A stretch of 64,000 nucleotides of DNA from Escherichia phage 04086. The notes under the pieces were generated by a model. The model was not told the origin of the DNA, ran no database searches, and saw nothing but the letters and a program-made list of their open reading frames with translations. The stretch is from the sequence record OR842557; one strand, given 5' to 3'. Position numbers and translations under genes: made by a program. The number at the start of each line of letters is the position of its first letter. Position 1 is the stretch's first letter. This document shows positions 2,488-59,276 of the stretch, piece by piece.

Positions 2488-3236
2488 TTCTTAAGGTCCT
2501 TTTCAACCAAAGACAAAGCAATACCGCGTTCGATTGGAATCATCTGCATAATGCTTTCTAATGAATAATTGTTCTTTACCAATAAATGGTTTATTTGGTA
2601 AAATAAAAATATCTCATCCGGATTGACTATAAGCTTAAACACCTCTAAAATATCGGTATACGTAATTGTTCTACGATTACAGCACCCATATTTGAGTTCG
2701 AAATGAATAGGGCTAGTTTGTTTAACTATATCCTCTAAAGTGGATAAGTCTATAGCATCTATTACGGCTAATTGGTCTTCTTCAGAAAGGTCAGTCCAAT
2801 TATATTTCCCGTTTTCATCTTCTACTGTTTGGAGGGTGTTCAAAATCAATTCGGATTTGTCGTGATATTCTATTTCCGGAAATTTGAATGTTAGCTTCAA
2901 GCCTGCCACTTCAATTGTGGGGTTATCTAACTTGGCCTGTTTCAAATTGAATAAGACTTGTCTATCCTTTTCACACTTACTGCAAGTGTATCGGATAGGA
3001 ATTTTGGTCTTGCCGAGTGATGACGTGTAAAGTTCAATGAACATATACGGGCGCCATGACATAGGATATTCACCGAAGTATTCTTCCAGTAACTCATCTA
3101 AAATTTGTTTTTGCTCTTCAGGTGATTTATTATTCATGTCATTTCGAATCAAAATAAAATCACGATAATCAGCTACTGTAAAAGGTTTAAATCGGTGGAC
3201 TCCATCGGGCATTTCACAACGTACTATATTAGCCAT
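2484..3236 (-). CDS. 51: Baseplate hub assembly catalyst gp51
   Basis: ORF 2484..3287; internal Met (MANIVRCEM) at 3236 gives ~250 aa, as T4 gp51 (249 aa); late promoter 21 nt upstream; synteny. Confidence 0.55.
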
Positions 3237-3256
3237 AGGGTGTCCTCTTATTGATG

Positions 3257-3268
3257 TATTTATAAATA
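3257..3268. promoter_or_regulatory. Overlapping divergent T4-type late promoters (TATTTATAAATA) for gene 51 (minus) and gene 26 (plus)
   Basis: TATTTATA at 3257-3264 and TATAAATA at 3261-3268, each ~20-28 nt upstream of its start codon. Confidence 0.55.
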
Positions 3269-3286
3269 AGCTTAAAGGAGAAGACA

Positions 3287-3910
3287 ATGAATTATACTTT
3301 TGACGTAAAAATTAAAAACAAAACCATAAAATGCAGAGCATTTACCCTCAGAGAGTATAAGGACTTGCTCCAAGCTAAATTAGAAGGCAGAATAGAGTCC
3401 TTTATCAATGAACTCATTTCGAATTGCACAGATGCTCGTGATTTAAACAAGCAAGAATCTGAGCTCCTGGTGATAAACCTGTGGGCCCATTCATTAGCCG
3501 AAGTGAATATAGAACGTGAGTGGGTTTGTAGTTGTGGTCGCTCACAGGTTGTCCCTATGACACTAACTCGCGCAACATTAGGTAAAGAGCCTGATGTTAT
3601 TAAAGACTTTGGCAACTTTAAAATTGTTTTCAGATATCCTAAACTCTTTGAAGATAAAAATAGAGCTATGATGGTCGCAGGGTGTATCGATTATATTTTA
3701 ACTTCTGCAGGCGAAAAGCTTTTTCTTTCCGATTTAAGCGATGCGGAACTTGATGACCTTTATTCTGTGATATCAGAAAAAGACATAAAAGAAGTTTATG
3801 ATGCACTAGTTGCCCCTAAGCCTATTTTGGCCATACCTATTTCTTGTGAATGTGGTGAACATACCGTCCACGTTATTGAGGGACTTAAAGAGTTCTTTAA
3901 GGTGATGTAA
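3287..3910 (+). CDS. 26: Baseplate hub subunit gp26
   Basis: 207 aa (T4 gp26 208 aa), immediately upstream of gp25 with ATGA-type overlap; synteny. Confidence 0.55.
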   Translation: MNYTFDVKIKNKTIKCRAFTLREYKDLLQAKLEGRIESFINELISNCTDARDLNKQESELLVINLWAHSLAEVNIEREWVCSCGRSQVVPMTLTRATLGKEPDVIKDFGNFKIVFRYPKLFEDKNRAMMVAGCIDYILTSAGEKLFLSDLSDAELDDLYSVISEKDIKEVYDALVAPKPILAIPISCECGEHTVHVIEGLKEFFKVM

Positions 3911-4299
3911 TGAATATCAATAAAATGTATTCAGATTTAGACCCTGAAATGAGGACGTCTTGGAATAGAGACGTCGCTAAAGCTACGGGTGCACGTGCAG
4001 TTAAAAATAGTTTGTTAGGCATTATTACTACTCGCAAAGGTTCACGCCCTTTTATGCCTGAATTTGGGTGTGACATCAGTAACCAATTGTTTGAGAATAT
4101 TACTCCACTAATCACGGATACCATTAAGCGTAATATAGTTTCCGCTGTGCGGAACTTCGAACCCAGAATTTCTACCCTGGCTGTAGGTGTGACACCTGTG
4201 TACGATGATAACTCGATTATAGTGACCGTTCAGTTTAGTATAGTTGATGACCCGGATACATTAGAGCAAATTAGAATCCAGCTCTCACAGAGTGGTTAA
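3910..4299 (+). CDS. 25: Baseplate wedge protein gp25 (gpW / lysozyme-like fold)
   Basis: 129 aa; near-identical to remembered T4 gp25 segments (LLGIITTRKGSRPF, PEFGCD, SAVRNFEPRI). Confidence 0.85.
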   Translation: MNINKMYSDLDPEMRTSWNRDVAKATGARAVKNSLLGIITTRKGSRPFMPEFGCDISNQLFENITPLITDTIKRNIVSAVRNFEPRISTLAVGVTPVYDDNSIIVTVQFSIVDDPDTLEQIRIQLSQSG

Positions 4300-4326
4300 T
4301 TGCTGTTCAAATGAATAGTGTATAAT
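4296..4326 (+). promoter_or_regulatory. Candidate T4 middle promoter (MotA-box-like TTGCTGTTCA plus TATAAT) for uvsY
   Basis: aattgctgttcaa then ~12 nt then tataat at 4321-4326, ~32 nt upstream of the uvsY ATG. Confidence 0.4.
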
Positions 4327-4357
4327 GGTCCTATGGTTATTACACAGGAAACATGCG

Positions 4358-4792
4358 ATGAGTAAAGAGATTGAATATAAATTAGAATCATTTCAGGACG
4401 CATTAGACGAGGATTTAAAGATTGATGGAACTCGTTTACAATATGAAGTACAGAACAACGTTTTGCTGCACAGCAAATGGCTAAGGCTGTATACGAATTG
4501 TAAGAAAGAAATAATGAGATTAGAAATCCAGAAAAAGACCTCACTTAAGAAGCGATTAGATTTCTACACGGGACGTGGAGAGCCTGGTGATGAGGTTTGT
4601 ATGGACCAGTATGAGAAGTCTGAATTAAAGACCGTTATGGCTGCGGATTCTAGTGTAATTAAAATCGACACATCAATCCAGTATTGGGCTTTATTACAGG
4701 ACTTTTGTAGTTCAGCACTTGATGCTATTAAGGCGCGTGGTTTTAACCTTAAGACCATGCATGAGATGAGACAATTTGAGGCAGGTAAATAA
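4358..4792 (+). CDS. uvsY: Recombination mediator UvsY
   Basis: Strong match to remembered T4 UvsY (TRLQYE..NNV.L.SKWL, YEKSE.KTV, IDTSIQYW, MRQFEAGK); ORF track start 4325, ATG at 4358 preferred. Confidence 0.85.
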   Translation: MSKEIEYKLESFQDALDEDLKIDGTRLQYEVQNNVLLHSKWLRLYTNCKKEIMRLEIQKKTSLKKRLDFYTGRGEPGDEVCMDQYEKSELKTVMAADSSVIKIDTSIQYWALLQDFCSSALDAIKARGFNLKTMHEMRQFEAGK

Positions 4793-4918
4793 TGAGACGT
4801 ACTAAAAATACCAAACCCATTAAAGTAGATGCCGATAAAATGAAACTTCTCCAAGAATTCATTAATGCTGCTTTAGCAAGTAATAAATAGATATGTAAGT
4901 TAAACTAAGGAGACAATC

Positions 4919-5086
4919 ATGTCAGATAAGATTTGCGTTGTCTGTAAAACTCCAATCGATGCTGCATTGGTTGTTGAAACAGAAAAAGGTCCGGTTCATC
5001 CGGGCTCATGTTATAATTACGTTCAAAGCCTGCCTGTTACGGAAAACACTGAAGAACAGCTGAACGAAACCCAATTACTACTTTAG
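4919..5086 (+). CDS. Small Cys-containing ORF (55 aa), position of T4 uvsY.-2-type ORFs
   Basis: ATG with AGGAG RBS (ctaaggagacaatcATG); CxxC...C pattern; below the 60 aa cutoff of the ORF track. Confidence 0.3.
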   Translation: MSDKICVVCKTPIDAALVVETEKGPVHPGSCYNYVQSLPVTENTEEQLNETQLLL

Positions 5087-53255: not shown

Positions 53256-53480
53256 ATGTCTGATATTAATGAATTAGAAAAAGCTGCTCTTGAACTGGCT
53301 GCACTGTATAAGAAAGTAAAAGATATGGCTTCTGCCCAGGATTTCGGTGTTGAGCTCGATGATTATGACGGTGAAGTTCGTCTCGAAGATTGGCTGAATA
53401 GCTCTTGTTATGGTGAAGAAGCTGGTCGCACCTTCGTTGCTCAGGCCGATGGTAAAATCTGGTATCCGAGCTCATGCTAA
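53256..53480 (+). CDS. Small protein, member 5 of tandem paralog family (C-terminal IWYPSSC)
   Basis: ORF track 53106..53480 trimmed to ATG 53256 after tgctaaggaaataaaaATG; 74 aa; degenerate version of the motif. Confidence 0.5.
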   Translation: MSDINELEKAALELAALYKKVKDMASAQDFGVELDDYDGEVRLEDWLNSSCYGEEAGRTFVAQADGKIWYPSSC

Positions 53481-54344: not shown

Positions 54345-54363
54345 GTTTACTGAGGAAAATATT

Positions 54364-55323
54364 ATGATGTTAGTTATTGGTTCTCGTGCACTGCACCAAG
54401 CTGGTTTGATTGAAAGTAAGTATATCGAAAATTCTGATTGGGATTTCATTGCCGACCAAGGCTCATGGAACCACTTTAAAGCACGTATGTTCGGTGCTCA
54501 TGTACACGTTGACAATCCTGATGTTCAGGCTTTCAAATGTATGCATAATGGTAAAGAAACCTATTTCGAAGCTTATATCGTCCGGGCCCTGACTAATGTA
54601 CGAGAAATTACCGGTGAGCTCCAAGATGAAGACTACACCTCAAGCTATCGTCTCCTGAAATATGCTGAAACCCATATTAAAAAGGACCGTCTTACAGGTT
54701 TCTATTGGGCAACGCCTGATATCTGTCTGGCTATCAAAACCTCTCATCGTTTCCTGAAGAATAATCCATTCTTCCTGAAAACTATGTCCCACATCAAATA
54801 CCTTCGTAATAAAGGTATCACCCTGAATGAAGAACTCCAGGAAATTATGCTGCAACGTCAAAAAGAAACGTTGAGCTATTCCCATCCTAAATTGGATGTA
54901 AACAAATCATCGTTCTTTAATGATACCATTTATACCCTAGACCATGACTCTATTCATGAAGCAGTGGCATTGGCAGGGCGCCCTGCATATACCTTTTATA
55001 TGAAGGAAGGTTCTGAAGTCATGACCTCTCGTGAGAAGTTCGAGGCTTTGCCTGAAGCTATTAAACTGGCCGGTGTGTATGAAGAAACTTGTGTCCTGGC
55101 CCTAGAACGTTCACAGGTTCCTAATGACTTCAATATTTCACCATCATTAAGTTTCTATATGGCTCTTGAGAAAGTGTGTACCTCAATCACTTCAGGTTGG
55201 TTCCGCGAGTACGCCTGGGAAAACTACCAAGCTGTGGTTAATATGTATAAGGCTCTAGGTGAAAACGACTACATCAAGCGTTTCCAAGATAACCATCATT
55301 TAATTCGTCCTTTCGAAAAATAA
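54364..55323 (+). CDS. Hypothetical protein, possible nucleotidyltransferase-fold N-terminus
   Basis: ORF track 54286 (TTG); ATG at 54364 after RBS gaggaaaatattATG; N-terminal LVIGSRAL...SDWDF loosely fits the GS...DxD motif; 319 aa. Confidence 0.5.
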   Translation: MMLVIGSRALHQAGLIESKYIENSDWDFIADQGSWNHFKARMFGAHVHVDNPDVQAFKCMHNGKETYFEAYIVRALTNVREITGELQDEDYTSSYRLLKYAETHIKKDRLTGFYWATPDICLAIKTSHRFLKNNPFFLKTMSHIKYLRNKGITLNEELQEIMLQRQKETLSYSHPKLDVNKSSFFNDTIYTLDHDSIHEAVALAGRPAYTFYMKEGSEVMTSREKFEALPEAIKLAGVYEETCVLALERSQVPNDFNISPSLSFYMALEKVCTSITSGWFREYAWENYQAVVNMYKALGENDYIKRFQDNHHLIRPFEK

Positions 55324-55335
55324 TTGCACAAAACA

Positions 55336-55364
55336 GTGTACAAGGTCTATAGGTGTGATACTAT
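55336..55364 (+). promoter_or_regulatory. Early promoter cassette (GTGTAC-N17-TACTATAGACCTATCAAAAC)
   Basis: Near copy of the cassette at 46235 (caaggtctatagg..gatactatagacctatcaaaac). Confidence 0.5.
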
Positions 55365-55401
55365 AGACCTATCAAAACAACAGAGTGAAATGGAGAATAA
55401 A

Positions 55402-55614
55402 ATGAAACTTTCTAACCAAGCAATCAACATGTTAAACGAAGTTCGTGCAGCTGGTGCTAAATGCCTGATGGTTAACACTCGTGACGGTGACCTTCGTCAA
55501 GCATTTGGTGAATTGAAATCTGCTGACCTGGTTAAATGTTCAGTTGGTATTGGTAACGCACTTCGTGTATCCTTATCTCCTAAAGGTAAAATGTACTTTT
55601 TCAACAAAAAGTAA
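55402..55614 (+). CDS. Hypothetical small protein
   Basis: ORF track 55324 overlaps the promoter; ATG at 55402 after RBS ggagaataaaATG; 70 aa. Confidence 0.45.
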   Translation: MKLSNQAINMLNEVRAAGAKCLMVNTRDGDLRQAFGELKSADLVKCSVGIGNALRVSLSPKGKMYFFNKK

Positions 55615-55628
55615 GTGAGGAAAATATT

Positions 55629-56318
55629 ATGAACGGTCCGAAAACTTTTAATTCTCAAGCTCGTGCAGTCGGTGGTTTTGCTCAAGATATCAGTAATGAT
55701 ATGATTAAAAATGAGCCTATGTTCTTTAATTGCGATGCTTATTTTGCTCATAAACACGGTGGTCCTATTACTCGTAGCTTTATTGAAAACCTGCCTGAAG
55801 ATTGGCAATGTGGCCCTGATATTGTATTTGATTCCCGTGTACACATGTTAATGCCTGGCTGGTACCCTGCTATCCCAGGTTATCACCATGATGACGTACC
55901 GCGCCCGGATATTCCAGTTGGCCAACACTTTATTACTGCAGGGCAACCTGATTATGATAATCCTCGATACCATTCTGAACATATTCTTGGTCTTGTTAAC
56001 GCTGGTGTGTGTCCTACCCATTTTGCAACCGGAACTGCACAGTTCAGTCAGATTCCTGAAGGCGAACTTATCTATCGCCAGTGGCATAAAGAAGTTCTGG
56101 AAAAAATTGAGTCCAATGAATTAACCAAGTGGGATGCTCCTGACCGCACGTTGCTCCAGTTTGATTGGCAGACATGGCATACAGGTTCTCGTGCAGTAAG
56201 TAATGGGTGGCGCTGGTTTGGTCGTGTGTCTCGTAATACAGACCGTGTTAAAAAGATTACAAATGAAATCCGCGTTAATGCTCAAGTATATCTGGAATTC
56301 CCTATGGAGGGCTGGTAA
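55629..56318 (+). CDS. Hypothetical His/Asp-rich protein
   Basis: 229 aa; RBS gaggaaaatattATG; clustered His and Asp (YHHDD, YHSEH) suggest a metal site; no confident family. Confidence 0.5.
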   Translation: MNGPKTFNSQARAVGGFAQDISNDMIKNEPMFFNCDAYFAHKHGGPITRSFIENLPEDWQCGPDIVFDSRVHMLMPGWYPAIPGYHHDDVPRPDIPVGQHFITAGQPDYDNPRYHSEHILGLVNAGVCPTHFATGTAQFSQIPEGELIYRQWHKEVLEKIESNELTKWDAPDRTLLQFDWQTWHTGSRAVSNGWRWFGRVSRNTDRVKKITNEIRVNAQVYLEFPMEGW

Positions 56319-56905
56319 TGGCCCTTTATGAACCTGGTTGTATGGGTATTGATACAAACTTCATCCGTCGGTCGGAAAATGCTGGAATTATTATCCCAAG
56401 TGGTGAGACTATGATTATTAAAAAGTCCTGGCGAAATATTGATGATGGTGATGAAGGAATTTCAGCCAGTACAATAGATTGGTCAGGTTGTACTGCCGAA
56501 ATGAAACAGCTTTTAATTGAGGAATATAAAATGGGCTATATCGTAAATGGCTGGCAAGCGGAACCACATAAAGAACAGACTCCAGACCCATTGATTTGTT
56601 ATAGCAAAAAATACGGCTTCCGTGCATGGAGTGATGAATACGACAAATTGGTGAGTTCTAGATTCTATGTTTGGATGGGTATATTATTTTTCCCACTCCT
56701 AGGGTTTTTCCTGACAACAGATAATGACCTGCCTATTTGTGTATTCGCTTCAGCGATGTCTGCTGCTATCTTAGGTCTTATCGCATCATTTTTATGGACA
56801 TCGGTTATCGAAGTACCTTTTCGTATTTCTAAAGTTAAAAAGGTATATGATGATATCACTAAGAAAAATACATTAAACTCTTTTATTAAGGAATGCCGTA
56901 AATGA
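56318..56905 (+). CDS. Membrane protein with C-terminal FIKECRK tail
   Basis: 195 aa; two transmembrane helices near the C-terminus; tail NTLNSFIKECRK parallels 51885..52238. Confidence 0.5.
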   Translation: MALYEPGCMGIDTNFIRRSENAGIIIPSGETMIIKKSWRNIDDGDEGISASTIDWSGCTAEMKQLLIEEYKMGYIVNGWQAEPHKEQTPDPLICYSKKYGFRAWSDEYDKLVSSRFYVWMGILFFPLLGFFLTTDNDLPICVFASAMSAAILGLIASFLWTSVIEVPFRISKVKKVYDDITKKNTLNSFIKECRK

Positions 56906-57138
56906 GCATTGCAATTTATATTAAATCTGAGTCATGTGATTCTTATCTGTATTCCTATGATACCGGAACATCAGAAGAGAAAATCAAAGAAGATTTAGAA
57001 AGCGATATGGATATGTTCTGTCCTATTGGTGACTATATGCTTCAAGTGTCTGATAATGAAAGTCCATCATCAGAAAATAGACTTCAAATTATTATGCAAG
57101 ATATTTTTAAACAATCATGGGAACGAGACGATGGGTAA
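56902..57138 (+). CDS. Hypothetical acidic protein
   Basis: 78 aa ORF with coupled start. Confidence 0.4.
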   Translation: MSIAIYIKSESCDSYLYSYDTGTSEEKIKEDLESDMDMFCPIGDYMLQVSDNESPSSENRLQIIMQDIFKQSWERDDG

Positions 57139-57580
57139 GAAAGCTAAGGAATCATCGGCAGGTATTTTGTTCATGACCGTTGATAAAGAACTGGTCATGG
57201 GTCGTGTAACAGGCTCTCGTAATCCAGAGAACATGCGTCATAAATGGGACATTCCTAAAGGTCATGTCGAACCAGGCGAAGAGCCTATTCAAGCGGCAAT
57301 GCGCGAAACCGAAGAAGAGATTGGATTCACAGCATACGATCCTGCGTTCCTGAAAGACCTAGGTGAGTTCAAATATTCAAGCAATAAGAATCTACATCTG
57401 TTCTTATATACAGTGCCTGTGGAACACGAGCAGTTCAAGGATTGCAAATGTACGGCTTACCATACGTTCCCTGATGGTCGCACGGTTCCTGAATTCGATG
57501 CGTTCGCTTTGATTAAACGTCCGCAATGGGAATATGTCATGGGCCCGTCGATGTATAAAGTTTTGAGTTCGCTCTTTTGA
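57131..57580 (+). CDS. nudE: Nudix hydrolase (NudE-like)
   Basis: Nudix box GHVEPGEEPIQAAMRETEEEIGF; ORF track 57026, ATG at 57131; lies upstream of e as T4 e.1. Confidence 0.8.
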   Translation: MGKKAKESSAGILFMTVDKELVMGRVTGSRNPENMRHKWDIPKGHVEPGEEPIQAAMRETEEEIGFTAYDPAFLKDLGEFKYSSNKNLHLFLYTVPVEHEQFKDCKCTAYHTFPDGRTVPEFDAFALIKRPQWEYVMGPSMYKVLSSLF

Positions 57581-57593
57581 TATAAATACCCGT

Positions 57594-58346
57594 ATGAATT
57601 ATTTAAAAATATATGAATCTTTAATAGAATCCACTATTAAAAGACCTCACATATGTGGGTACACCGAAAAACATCATATTTTACCGAAATCGATGGGTGG
57701 TAGTGATTCTATTGATAACTTAGTCGACCTCACCGCCCGAGAACATTTTATTGCACACCTATTATTGGCACGGATTTTTAAAAATCGCGAAATGTGGTCC
57801 GCTGTATATATGATGGCTTCAACAAGCTTGTCAAACTCTGACAGACATAGATGTTCATCGCATTTGTACGAATTATTGCGAGAACGTGCATCAATATATA
57901 ATTCAGGTGAAAATTCTCCAAATTGGGGAATTAAACGTTCCGAAGAAACACGATTAAAAATGTCAATTTCGAAAATGGGTTCCAAAAATCCAATGTATGG
58001 GATTCCTCAATGCTCGGAACACACCAACAAAATTAGTCTTGGTGTTATTGAAGCTTTTAAAAATCCGGAAATAAAAGAGCGACATAGGCAAAGTGTTTCC
58101 GGGGAACTCAATGGGTTTTATGGAAAGAACCATTCCGAAAAAAGTTTGGAAAAACAACGGAATGCAAAACGGAAAGGATTTCCTTGGGACAATTATTCAG
58201 AATTGTACCCAATTTGGGTTTCATTAAATTGTCCCAAACATCCAACATTCACAAATGAACTTGTTAAATTGGGATATCCTAAAAAGAAACTTGTTCGAAT
58301 AGTGGAAGAATTTAAAAATGAATATCTTCGAAATGTTACGCCTTGA
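57594..58346 (+). CDS. HNH homing endonuclease between nudE and e
   Basis: Motif [31 protein letters not shown]; N-terminus [11 protein letters not shown] paralogous to 43362..44012. Confidence 0.8.
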
Positions 58347-58806
58347 TGAAGGCTGTAAATTGGACTTATATAAGGATACTGAGGGCTACTATACTATTGG
58401 CATTGGCCAATTGATTACTAAGAACCCTTCTAAAGATGTTGCTCGTGCTGAACTTGATAAGCTTATGGGTCGAGTTTGTAATGGTCGTATTACTATGGCT
58501 GAAGCTGAACAACTCTTTAACCGATCGGTTGAAAATGCTCGTAGAGCTATTCTGCGTAATCCTAAATTGAAACCTGTTTATGATGTACTGGACGAAGTTC
58601 GTCGTTGTGCTTTAATTAACATGGTCTTCCAAATGGGTGAAGCAGGCGTAGCAGGGTTCACTAACTCTTTACGTATGCTCCAACAGAAACGTTGGAACGA
58701 TGCGGCAGTTAACCTGGCTCAATCCCGTTGGTATAAACAAACTCCTAATCGTGCTAAGCGTGTTATCGCCACCTTTAAAACCGGCACATGGGCTGCTTAT
58801 AGATAA
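58318..58806 (+). CDS. e: Endolysin (T4 lysozyme, gene e)
   Basis: 162 aa; [11 protein letters not shown], catalytic Glu11/Asp20 context [13 protein letters not shown], and [29 protein letters not shown] match T4 lysozyme. Confidence 0.97.
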
Positions 58807-58868: not shown

Positions 58869-59276
58869 ATGACTCGTATCAACCTTACCTTAGTATCTGA
58901 ATTGGCTGACCAACACTTAATGGCTGAATACCGTGAACTCCCACGGATTTTTGGTGCGGTTCGCGAACGTATTGCCAAAGGGCAAGGCTTCTCTGATATC
59001 CCTAAAGACTTCCGCCTTGGTGCAGGGCACGTCAAGTTCTTTTATGTCAAAATTGGATTTTTGTTCTTGCGACAAAATGCAATAATTGAGGAACTTCTGA
59101 AGCGTGGTTACCAGATTCAAAATACCCATGTAGACGTAGCGGATATTCCATTACGGCTCATGAACGATTTCACCCCATCCGAAGCTGATATAGCTTTAAG
59201 CCAAGCTCGATTGGACGAAAAAATTGCACAACGCCCTACCTGGTACAAACATTACGGCAAGGCTATTTACGCTTAA
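58869..59276 (+). CDS. denV: Endonuclease V (pyrimidine dimer DNA glycosylase)
   Basis: 135 aa; [26 protein letters not shown] and C-terminal QRPTWYK.YGKAIYA match T4 DenV. Confidence 0.93.

Follow-up and report, generated by a model that had tools for sequence, protein, structure and literature searches.

A conserved accessory protein of Escherichia phage 04086 is predicted to be an Fe(II)/2-oxoglutarate oxygenase of a sequence-orphan family

In the 64,000-nucleotide stretch of the Escherichia phage 04086 genome analysed here (record OR842557; hereafter the window), a 229-codon gene probably encodes a soluble, single-domain, non-haem Fe(II)/2-oxoglutarate (2OG) oxygenase with a jelly-roll core, acting on a small anionic or nucleotide-like substrate. 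We assign this reading a probability of about 0.78. The window is a piece of a T4-like myovirus genome, with uvsW, baseplate genes, RNA ligase 2 and deoxynucleoside monophosphate (dNMP) kinase, and its best-matching record is Salmonella phage vB_SalM_ABTNLsp5 (genus Dhakavirus), in which the corresponding protein is 99.6% identical and labelled 'hypothetical protein'. A first-pass annotation of the same DNA had delimited the open reading frame (ORF), and reading the sequence again gave the same boundaries:

55629-56318, + strand: coding sequence of the predicted Fe(II)/2OG-dependent oxygenase (229 residues, PHROG 1843), with the ATG at 55629 and the TAA at 56316-56318

This ORF is a real gene, maintained under strong purifying selection. 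Compared with an ortholog of 99% identity, it has a ratio of nonsynonymous to synonymous substitution rates (dN/dS) of 0.05, and compared with one of 86% identity, a ratio of 0.17. In comparisons with orthologs of 80-81% identity, where synonymous sites are saturated (proportion of synonymous differences, pS, 0.76), the nonsynonymous proportion (pN) is only 0.14. Ungapped dN/dS comparisons with three loci (L016, L018 and L020; L numbers designate the loci compared) were excluded because an indel shifts the comparison frame. Purifying selection on this gene also means that the ORFs on the opposite strand are to be regarded as shadows.

The first-pass annotation had described the product as rich in His and Asp and had pointed to three possible metal-binding clusters, AHKH, YHHDD and YHSEH, reminiscent of a metal-dependent hydrolase or oxygenase. 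The three clusters are all there (residues 40-43, 85-89 and 114-118, respectively). With 11 His in 229 residues (4.8%), the protein has about twice the His content of a typical bacterial proteome; Asp (15 of 229, 6.6%) is near average, so that for this residue the enrichment is marginal at most. Conservation was evaluated in an alignment of 78 homologs reaching down to 25% identity, in which H86 and D88, both within YHHDD, were kept in every sequence. AHKH is not conserved, position 41 being mostly V, A or Y and position 43 being His in 5 of the 78 homologs. H87 and D89 of YHHDD are found in 25 homologs, all from the T4-like clade, their positions being occupied by Thr and Gly in the remaining 53. 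As for YHSEH, position 115 is His in 60 homologs, and H118 is again exclusive to the T4-like clade (25 homologs), with a gap elsewhere. Other histidines (H72, kept in 42 homologs; H100 and H153, in 25-26) are not family-wide either. The invariant residues are A40, G44, D68, L74, P80, P83, G84, H86, D88, P91, R92, P107, Y149, H184, R195, R199, R215 and W229, and they thus include a third candidate ligand, H184, and two arginines, R195 and R199, which the first-pass annotation had overlooked.

Taken in order, these positions read H-x-D...H (H86, D88 and H184), followed by an Arg 11 residues after the distal His (R195, +11) and by R-x-S/T at +15 (R199), and correspond to the Fe(II)/2OG oxygenase signature, with the H-x-D/E...H facial triad of the superfamily and a strand-VIII basic residue about 9-15 residues after the distal His. 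The regular expression HxD(60-130)Hx10Rx3R was found in 348 of 355 full-length family members and, among the 118 of these that are representatives at 50% identity, in 111. The same full-length set showed a second hallmark, as Trp is the last residue in 344 members, 339 of them ending in Gly-Trp. Such an invariant terminal Trp is unusual and hints at a specific role for the tail or the free C-terminus, for example as an active-site lid or in contacting a partner. The corresponding codons are the following:

55884-55892, + strand: H86-H87-D88, the H-x-D part of the predicted iron facial triad (H86 and D88 in 78/78 homologs)
56178-56180, + strand: H184, the predicted distal iron ligand on jelly-roll strand VII (invariant, 78/78; model strand 183-186)
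56211-56231, + strand: R195-W-F-G-R199-V-S201 on strand VIII, with the predicted 2OG C5-carboxylate arginine(s) and R-x-S (R195 and R199 in 78/78)
56310-56315, + strand: C-terminal Gly-Trp, a family hallmark (W229 invariant, Trp as last residue)

The predicted fold was obtained with AlphaFold. A model built from 26 close homologs was moderate, with a predicted local distance difference test (pLDDT) score of 78.9 and a poorly defined HxD region. With the distant clade added (78 sequences), the pLDDT was 89.9 and the predicted template-modelling score (pTM) 0.88, with no segment below 50; the C-terminal residues 221-229 had the low mean pLDDT of 59. The model consists of an N-terminal beta-hairpin and helices followed by eight core strands, which form the eight-stranded double-stranded beta-helix (jelly-roll) of the superfamily. 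In this layout the HxD motif ends strand II, while strand VII carries the distal His and strand VIII the basic residue. In the model, H86 is located in a beta-bridge after the first core strand (65-74), H184 within strand 183-186, and R195, R199 and S201 on strand 193-202, where they are alternate residues facing one side. This placement is the arrangement expected for the superfamily jelly-roll; H184 is on the strand that should neighbour H86, which lends indirect support to a putative common metal site. When the model was compared with known structures, all of the 60 best neighbours were Fe(II)/2OG oxygenases, the closest being PhyH-type enzymes, and none was a metallohydrolase; the oxygenase half of the earlier proposal was thereby favoured and the hydrolase half lost its footing. 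In a viral structure library the matches were mostly to uncharacterised phage proteins; proteins bearing the name phytanoyl-CoA dioxygenase or 2OG-Fe(II) oxygenase matched weakly.

In sequence-level searches, no significant sequence or profile match to any curated 2OG-oxygenase family was obtained in Pfam, NCBIfam, PDB sequences or hhalign comparisons. A Pfam scan of all 78 aligned members matched no 2OG-oxygenase model; PF05721 (PhyH) gave nothing at E <= 1 in any of them, and neither PF13640 nor PF13532 was matched. NCBIfam and PADLOC returned no match for the 229-residue protein, and a PDB sequence search found nothing with either the single protein or the 78-sequence profile. Profile-profile alignment (hhalign) with the 2OG oxygenases of cyanophage P-SSM2 was also not significant (probability 0.1-0.3%); one short alignment, which put H184 and R195 on the distal His...Arg of PiuC, had a probability of 0.3% and was not counted as evidence. 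Two sub-threshold matches, to AAR2_1st (E 0.037) and to isopentenyl-diphosphate isomerase (E 0.6), were rejected as chance. The sole family match was to PHROG 1843 (PHROGs, E 1e-94), a family of unknown function, and literature searches on the PHROG 1843-type family or on RB69ORF132c found no paper. The missing curated-family match is that of a sequence-orphan family inside a known superfamily and does not contradict the predicted fold. Given that PF05721 was not matched, the protein is therefore PhyH-like in fold only and not a member of the PhyH family.

From the conserved residues and the modelled fold we infer metal binding, 2OG binding and a catalytic cycle of the following kind. Fe(II) would be held by the facial triad H86-x-D88...H184, with 2OG chelating the iron via its C1 carboxylate and keto group. 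The C5 carboxylate of 2OG would be anchored by R195, 11 residues past the distal His, or alternatively by R199-x-S201 at +15, either arginine being a candidate. The 2OG-binding role of a strand-VIII arginine rests on the spacing seen in known enzymes, the +11 position being that of PhyH/PHYH, EctD and TauD and the +15 position that of DAOCS-type enzymes. O2 would drive the oxidative decarboxylation of 2OG, yielding succinate, CO2 and an Fe(IV)=O species, which would in turn oxidise, most probably hydroxylate, the prime substrate. Since the gene lies among accessory genes that are putatively prereplicative (early/middle), the enzyme would be active in the cytoplasm of the infected cell, and only with oxygen present. 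A halogenase is disfavoured by the HxD form of the motif, rather than HxA/G.

Several features suggest that the substrate is a small molecule, either an anionic metabolite or a nucleotide-like compound, which widely differing bacteria have in common. These features are the further invariant residues of basic or polar character (the second strand-VIII arginine, R199 or R195, with R92, R215, D68 and Y149), the closest structural neighbours, which are small-molecule enzymes, and the host range, which spans Gram-negative bacteria and actinobacteria. The second arginine and the other four residues suggest an anionic substrate. TauD/TfdA-type enzymes have the same distal-motif spacing as the phage protein, H-x10-R-x3-R, which in E. 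coli TauD is made up of H255, R266 (binding the 2OG C5 carboxylate) and R270 (binding the substrate sulfonate). Should the analogy with TauD be valid, R199 would be the residue that binds an anionic substrate group.

A host-specific macromolecule is a less likely target. We consider rather unlikely a 2OG oxygenase acting on a macromolecule, either an AlkB-like oxidative DNA or RNA demethylase or a prolyl/arginyl-type hydroxylase of a host translation factor or ribosomal protein. Prolyl 4-hydroxylases/prolyl hydroxylase domain (PHD) enzymes and AlkB homologs had lower structural scores and carry their basic residue elsewhere. The AlkB family in particular has an R-x5-R motif about 17-23 residues past the distal His, plus a nucleotide-recognition lid; the phage protein has its invariant arginines at +11 and +15 and gave no PF13532 match. 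A jelly-roll or cupin protein could also bind metal and make no use of 2OG, be it as a sugar-nucleotide isomerase, as a 2OG-independent dioxygenase or as a non-catalytic binding protein. This is very improbable, as the 60 top structural matches of the better model are without exception 2OG oxygenases and the family-wide invariance of the full catalytic set, including the strand-VIII arginines, would be unexpected in a pseudoenzyme or in a 2OG-independent cupin. Finally, a metal-dependent hydrolase with a site built from AHKH, YHHDD and YHSEH is barely tenable: the clusters exist, and H-H-D-D superficially resembles HD-type motifs, but AHKH is not conserved, H87, D89 and H118 are clade-specific, no hydrolase family was matched in Pfam or NCBIfam, and no hydrolase fold was found among the structural neighbours listed.

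The predicted 2OG oxygenase can be set apart from the members of the superfamily it most resembles. The PhyH-type enzymes used in the comparison were EasH, EctD (ectoine hydroxylase), ColD, proline hydroxylase H11, EvdO2, AusE, AsqJ and human PHYH. They have no detectable sequence-level relationship to the phage protein and are longer (about 250-320 versus 229 residues), whereas the phage protein has a long II-III loop and a second invariant arginine at +15. We know of no PhyH-type enzyme with the invariant C-terminal Gly-Trp. In T4-like cyanomyoviruses, 2OG-Fe(II) oxygenases and 'PhyH-domain' proteins of unknown function have been recognised (Sullivan et al. 2010, PMC3037559); these are likewise accessory genes of T4-like myoviruses, belong to the same superfamily and have substrates that are likewise unknown. 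Nevertheless, the cyanophage oxygenases form a separate family. With the hidden Markov model (HMM) of the 229-residue family, the oxygenases of P-SSM2 went undetected (lowest E 0.038 in a database of six sequences), and the cyanophage proteins gave only weak structural matches to the model (E about 1e-2, template-modelling (TM) score 0.25-0.37). Moreover, the cyanophage genes match PF13640, whereas the present family matches no Pfam model. The family is a distinct, sequence-orphan lineage of the superfamily, present in non-cyanobacterial T4-like phages and well beyond.

Some labels in the public record of P-SSM2, a Prochlorococcus phage, deserve mention here. The piuC gene (L085, 27677-28270), which matches PF13640 (2OG-Fe(II) oxygenase), is labelled 'ferrochelatase', and a coding sequence with a weak PF13640 match (L085:48665-49213, E 0.005) is labelled 'DNA endonuclease V'. 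A 'DNA endonuclease V' coding sequence of 209 residues (L090:19601-20230) has the same name and length as a P-SSM2 protein that weakly matched the 229-residue model in structure, to which it appears to correspond. Both labels are probable annotation errors.

Homologs of the 229-residue protein were found in 469 phage records, and nearly all of those listed carry the annotation 'hypothetical protein'. In support of the predicted enzyme class, a homolog of 81% identity from an Aeromonas phage independently bears the name 'Phytanoyl-CoA dioxygenase family protein' in one source. The family comprises 1459 clusters at 90% identity and, in a library of 1.84 billion proteins, 628 clusters at 50% identity. 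Nearly all members have one domain and 205-235 residues. Two members of about 420-440 residues, in which the query aligns over 2-3 stretches, may have arisen by tandem duplication, and the longer members examined for fusion domains showed no informative extra domain. Among T4-like phages, the carriers infect Escherichia, Salmonella, Klebsiella, Citrobacter, Enterobacter, Serratia, Pectobacterium and Aeromonas. Homologs of about 30% identity occur in one Vequintavirinae phage, in one Erwinia phage, in Mycobacterium and Gordonia phages and in Mycobacteroides genomes, where the copies look like prophage copies. T4 is without an ortholog (best tblastn E 2.8; no match to the family HMM at E <= 10), and its e.6-nudE interval contains e.5 to e.2 only. 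In Aeromonas phage 65, the homolog seems to be split into two ORFs of 143 and 86 residues (UniProt E5DSD9 and E5DSE0), which may reflect a pseudogene or a sequencing frameshift.

In the window, the gene lies in the variable accessory e.x region, with e.6 (50714-51307) on one side and nudE (57026-57580), a Nudix gene, on the other. All genes of this interval are on the + strand and tightly packed; the T4-type lysozyme gene e (58318-58806) and denV (58869-59276) lie further along. The gene upstream (54364-55323, + strand) encodes a DUF7277 + DUF7275 protein of PHROG 2141 (function unknown); it has no T4 homolog and was found in 23 of 80 related loci. The next gene downstream (56318-56905, + strand) encodes a PHROG 2203 'membrane protein', and its start overlaps the stop of the 229-codon gene in the TAATG at 56316-56320, an overlap that makes translational coupling of the two genes possible. 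Other carriers have the gene in quite different surroundings. In Aeromonas phage 44RR2.8t, it is located between denB and ndd, away from e; a 71%-identical homolog lies near a chromosomal/apparent-prophage boundary in a 612-kb, Bacteroidota-like contig; and in other long bacterial contigs the homolog adjoins TerC/TerD genes, type II secretion/pilus genes or arrays of small hypothetical genes. Across 80 viral loci, no neighbour family was common beyond close T4-like relatives (maximum 24 of 80), and in 44 divergent loci the commonest neighbours occurred in only 6. The gene behaves as a stand-alone mobile module.

One recurrent neighbour may bear on the substrate of the predicted oxygenase. In 7 of 50 divergent environmental loci of T4-like phages (L035, L043, L058, L072, L078, L080 and L083; cluster at about 3100-5000), a NAMPT (NadV-like) gene lies at most about 1 kb upstream of the homolog; the stop of NAMPT and the start of the homolog overlap by 4 nucleotides in L035, L043 and L078. 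In an eighth locus, L065 (8650-10170), which was grouped with the close relatives, NAMPT lies 3 kb downstream. Some NAMPT loci also have upstream NMNAT-Nudix (NatV-like) and Macro-domain genes, and pairwise identity among the homologs of the NAMPT loci is only 45-68%. In addition, a Nudix gene is found two genes downstream in the window and immediately next to the homolog in a long contig of unrelated context. An association with Nudix or nicotinamide adenine dinucleotide (NAD) genes as a general rule was rejected, given that a Nudix gene occurs within 5 kb in 27 of 80 loci but in 4 of the 50 divergent ones, and NAMPT in 8 of 80. The NAD-salvage/Nudix neighbourhood is accordingly a weak, low-probability lead to the substrate rather than a conclusion. 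A phosphorylated substrate would fit the invariant arginine-rich pocket, and it is conceivable, if improbable, that the family represents phage oxygenases of a new kind, serving counter-defence or metabolic takeover, whose target is a small molecule derived from NAD, ADP-ribose or a nucleotide.

Regarding expression, the gene is preceded by the following element:

55617-55628, + strand: translation initiation region, with a GAGG Shine-Dalgarno sequence and an AT-rich 8-nucleotide spacer (GAGGAAAATATT) right before the ATG

The first-pass annotation had noted a ribosome-binding string shared with the gene at 54364 and had taken it as a sign of coordinated expression. The shared string is real, as the window contains exactly two identical copies of the 15-nucleotide GAGGAAAATATTATG, at 54352-54366 and at 55617-55631; another copy, with one mismatch, is at 51344, and the chance expectation is about 0.38 matches at <=2 mismatches. 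The conclusion drawn from it could not be sustained, because GAGGAAAATATT-ATG precedes orthologs in many phages with an unrelated upstream sequence or neighbour; it is therefore a strong Shine-Dalgarno context proper to this gene. Likeness between initiation regions implies that two genes are translated at similar strength, which does not amount to coordinated regulation. Co-transcription of the gene with its neighbours is plausible because the genes are packed tightly on one strand. No late promoter was found on the + strand between 42055 and 57581, and this, together with a MotA-box-like match upstream at 52151, suggests prereplicative (early/middle) expression. A late-promoter motif, TATAAATA, is located at 57581.

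Three further elements lie near the gene. The first of them is found upstream:

55344-55369, + strand: perfect 9-bp inverted repeat GGTCTATAG-N8-CTATAGACC, between the 54364-55323 gene and a small ORF at 55390-55614

RNA folding of the surrounding segment (55320-55395) gave a predicted free energy of -19.5 kcal/mol and a z-score of -3.56. The repeat is kept in the closest relatives only (L005, L006, L011, L021 and L071). It is not a classical terminator, because it has no T-tract, and it may be an RNA stability or processing element. Closer to e.6, five small paralogous genes stand in tandem on the + strand (52235-52525, 52535-52816, 52826-53023, 53033-53245 and 53256-53480). Their products (65-96 residues, 24-33% identity) share an invariant G...W-x-x-S-S-x(0-2)-Cys that closes each of the five sequences, and no Pfam match was found in the four genes scanned. 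Finally, a homing-endonuclease gene with HNH and NUMOD3 domains (57594-58346, + strand) lies between the Nudix gene and lysozyme gene e. It is missing at the matching position in ABTNLsp5, the phage with the nearly identical 229-residue protein, and therefore looks like a recent mobile insertion.

In summary, the analysis provides a testable enzymatic identity for a family of about 630 clusters that is missed by current sequence libraries and that, T4 being without the gene, escaped classical genetics. The significance of the assignment is limited in that 2OG oxygenases with unknown substrates are by now familiar in phages. The ligand residues named here permit clean loss-of-function mutants to be made and, if the proposed chemistry is true, oxygen would be needed, so that any benefit of the gene to the phage should vanish anaerobically.
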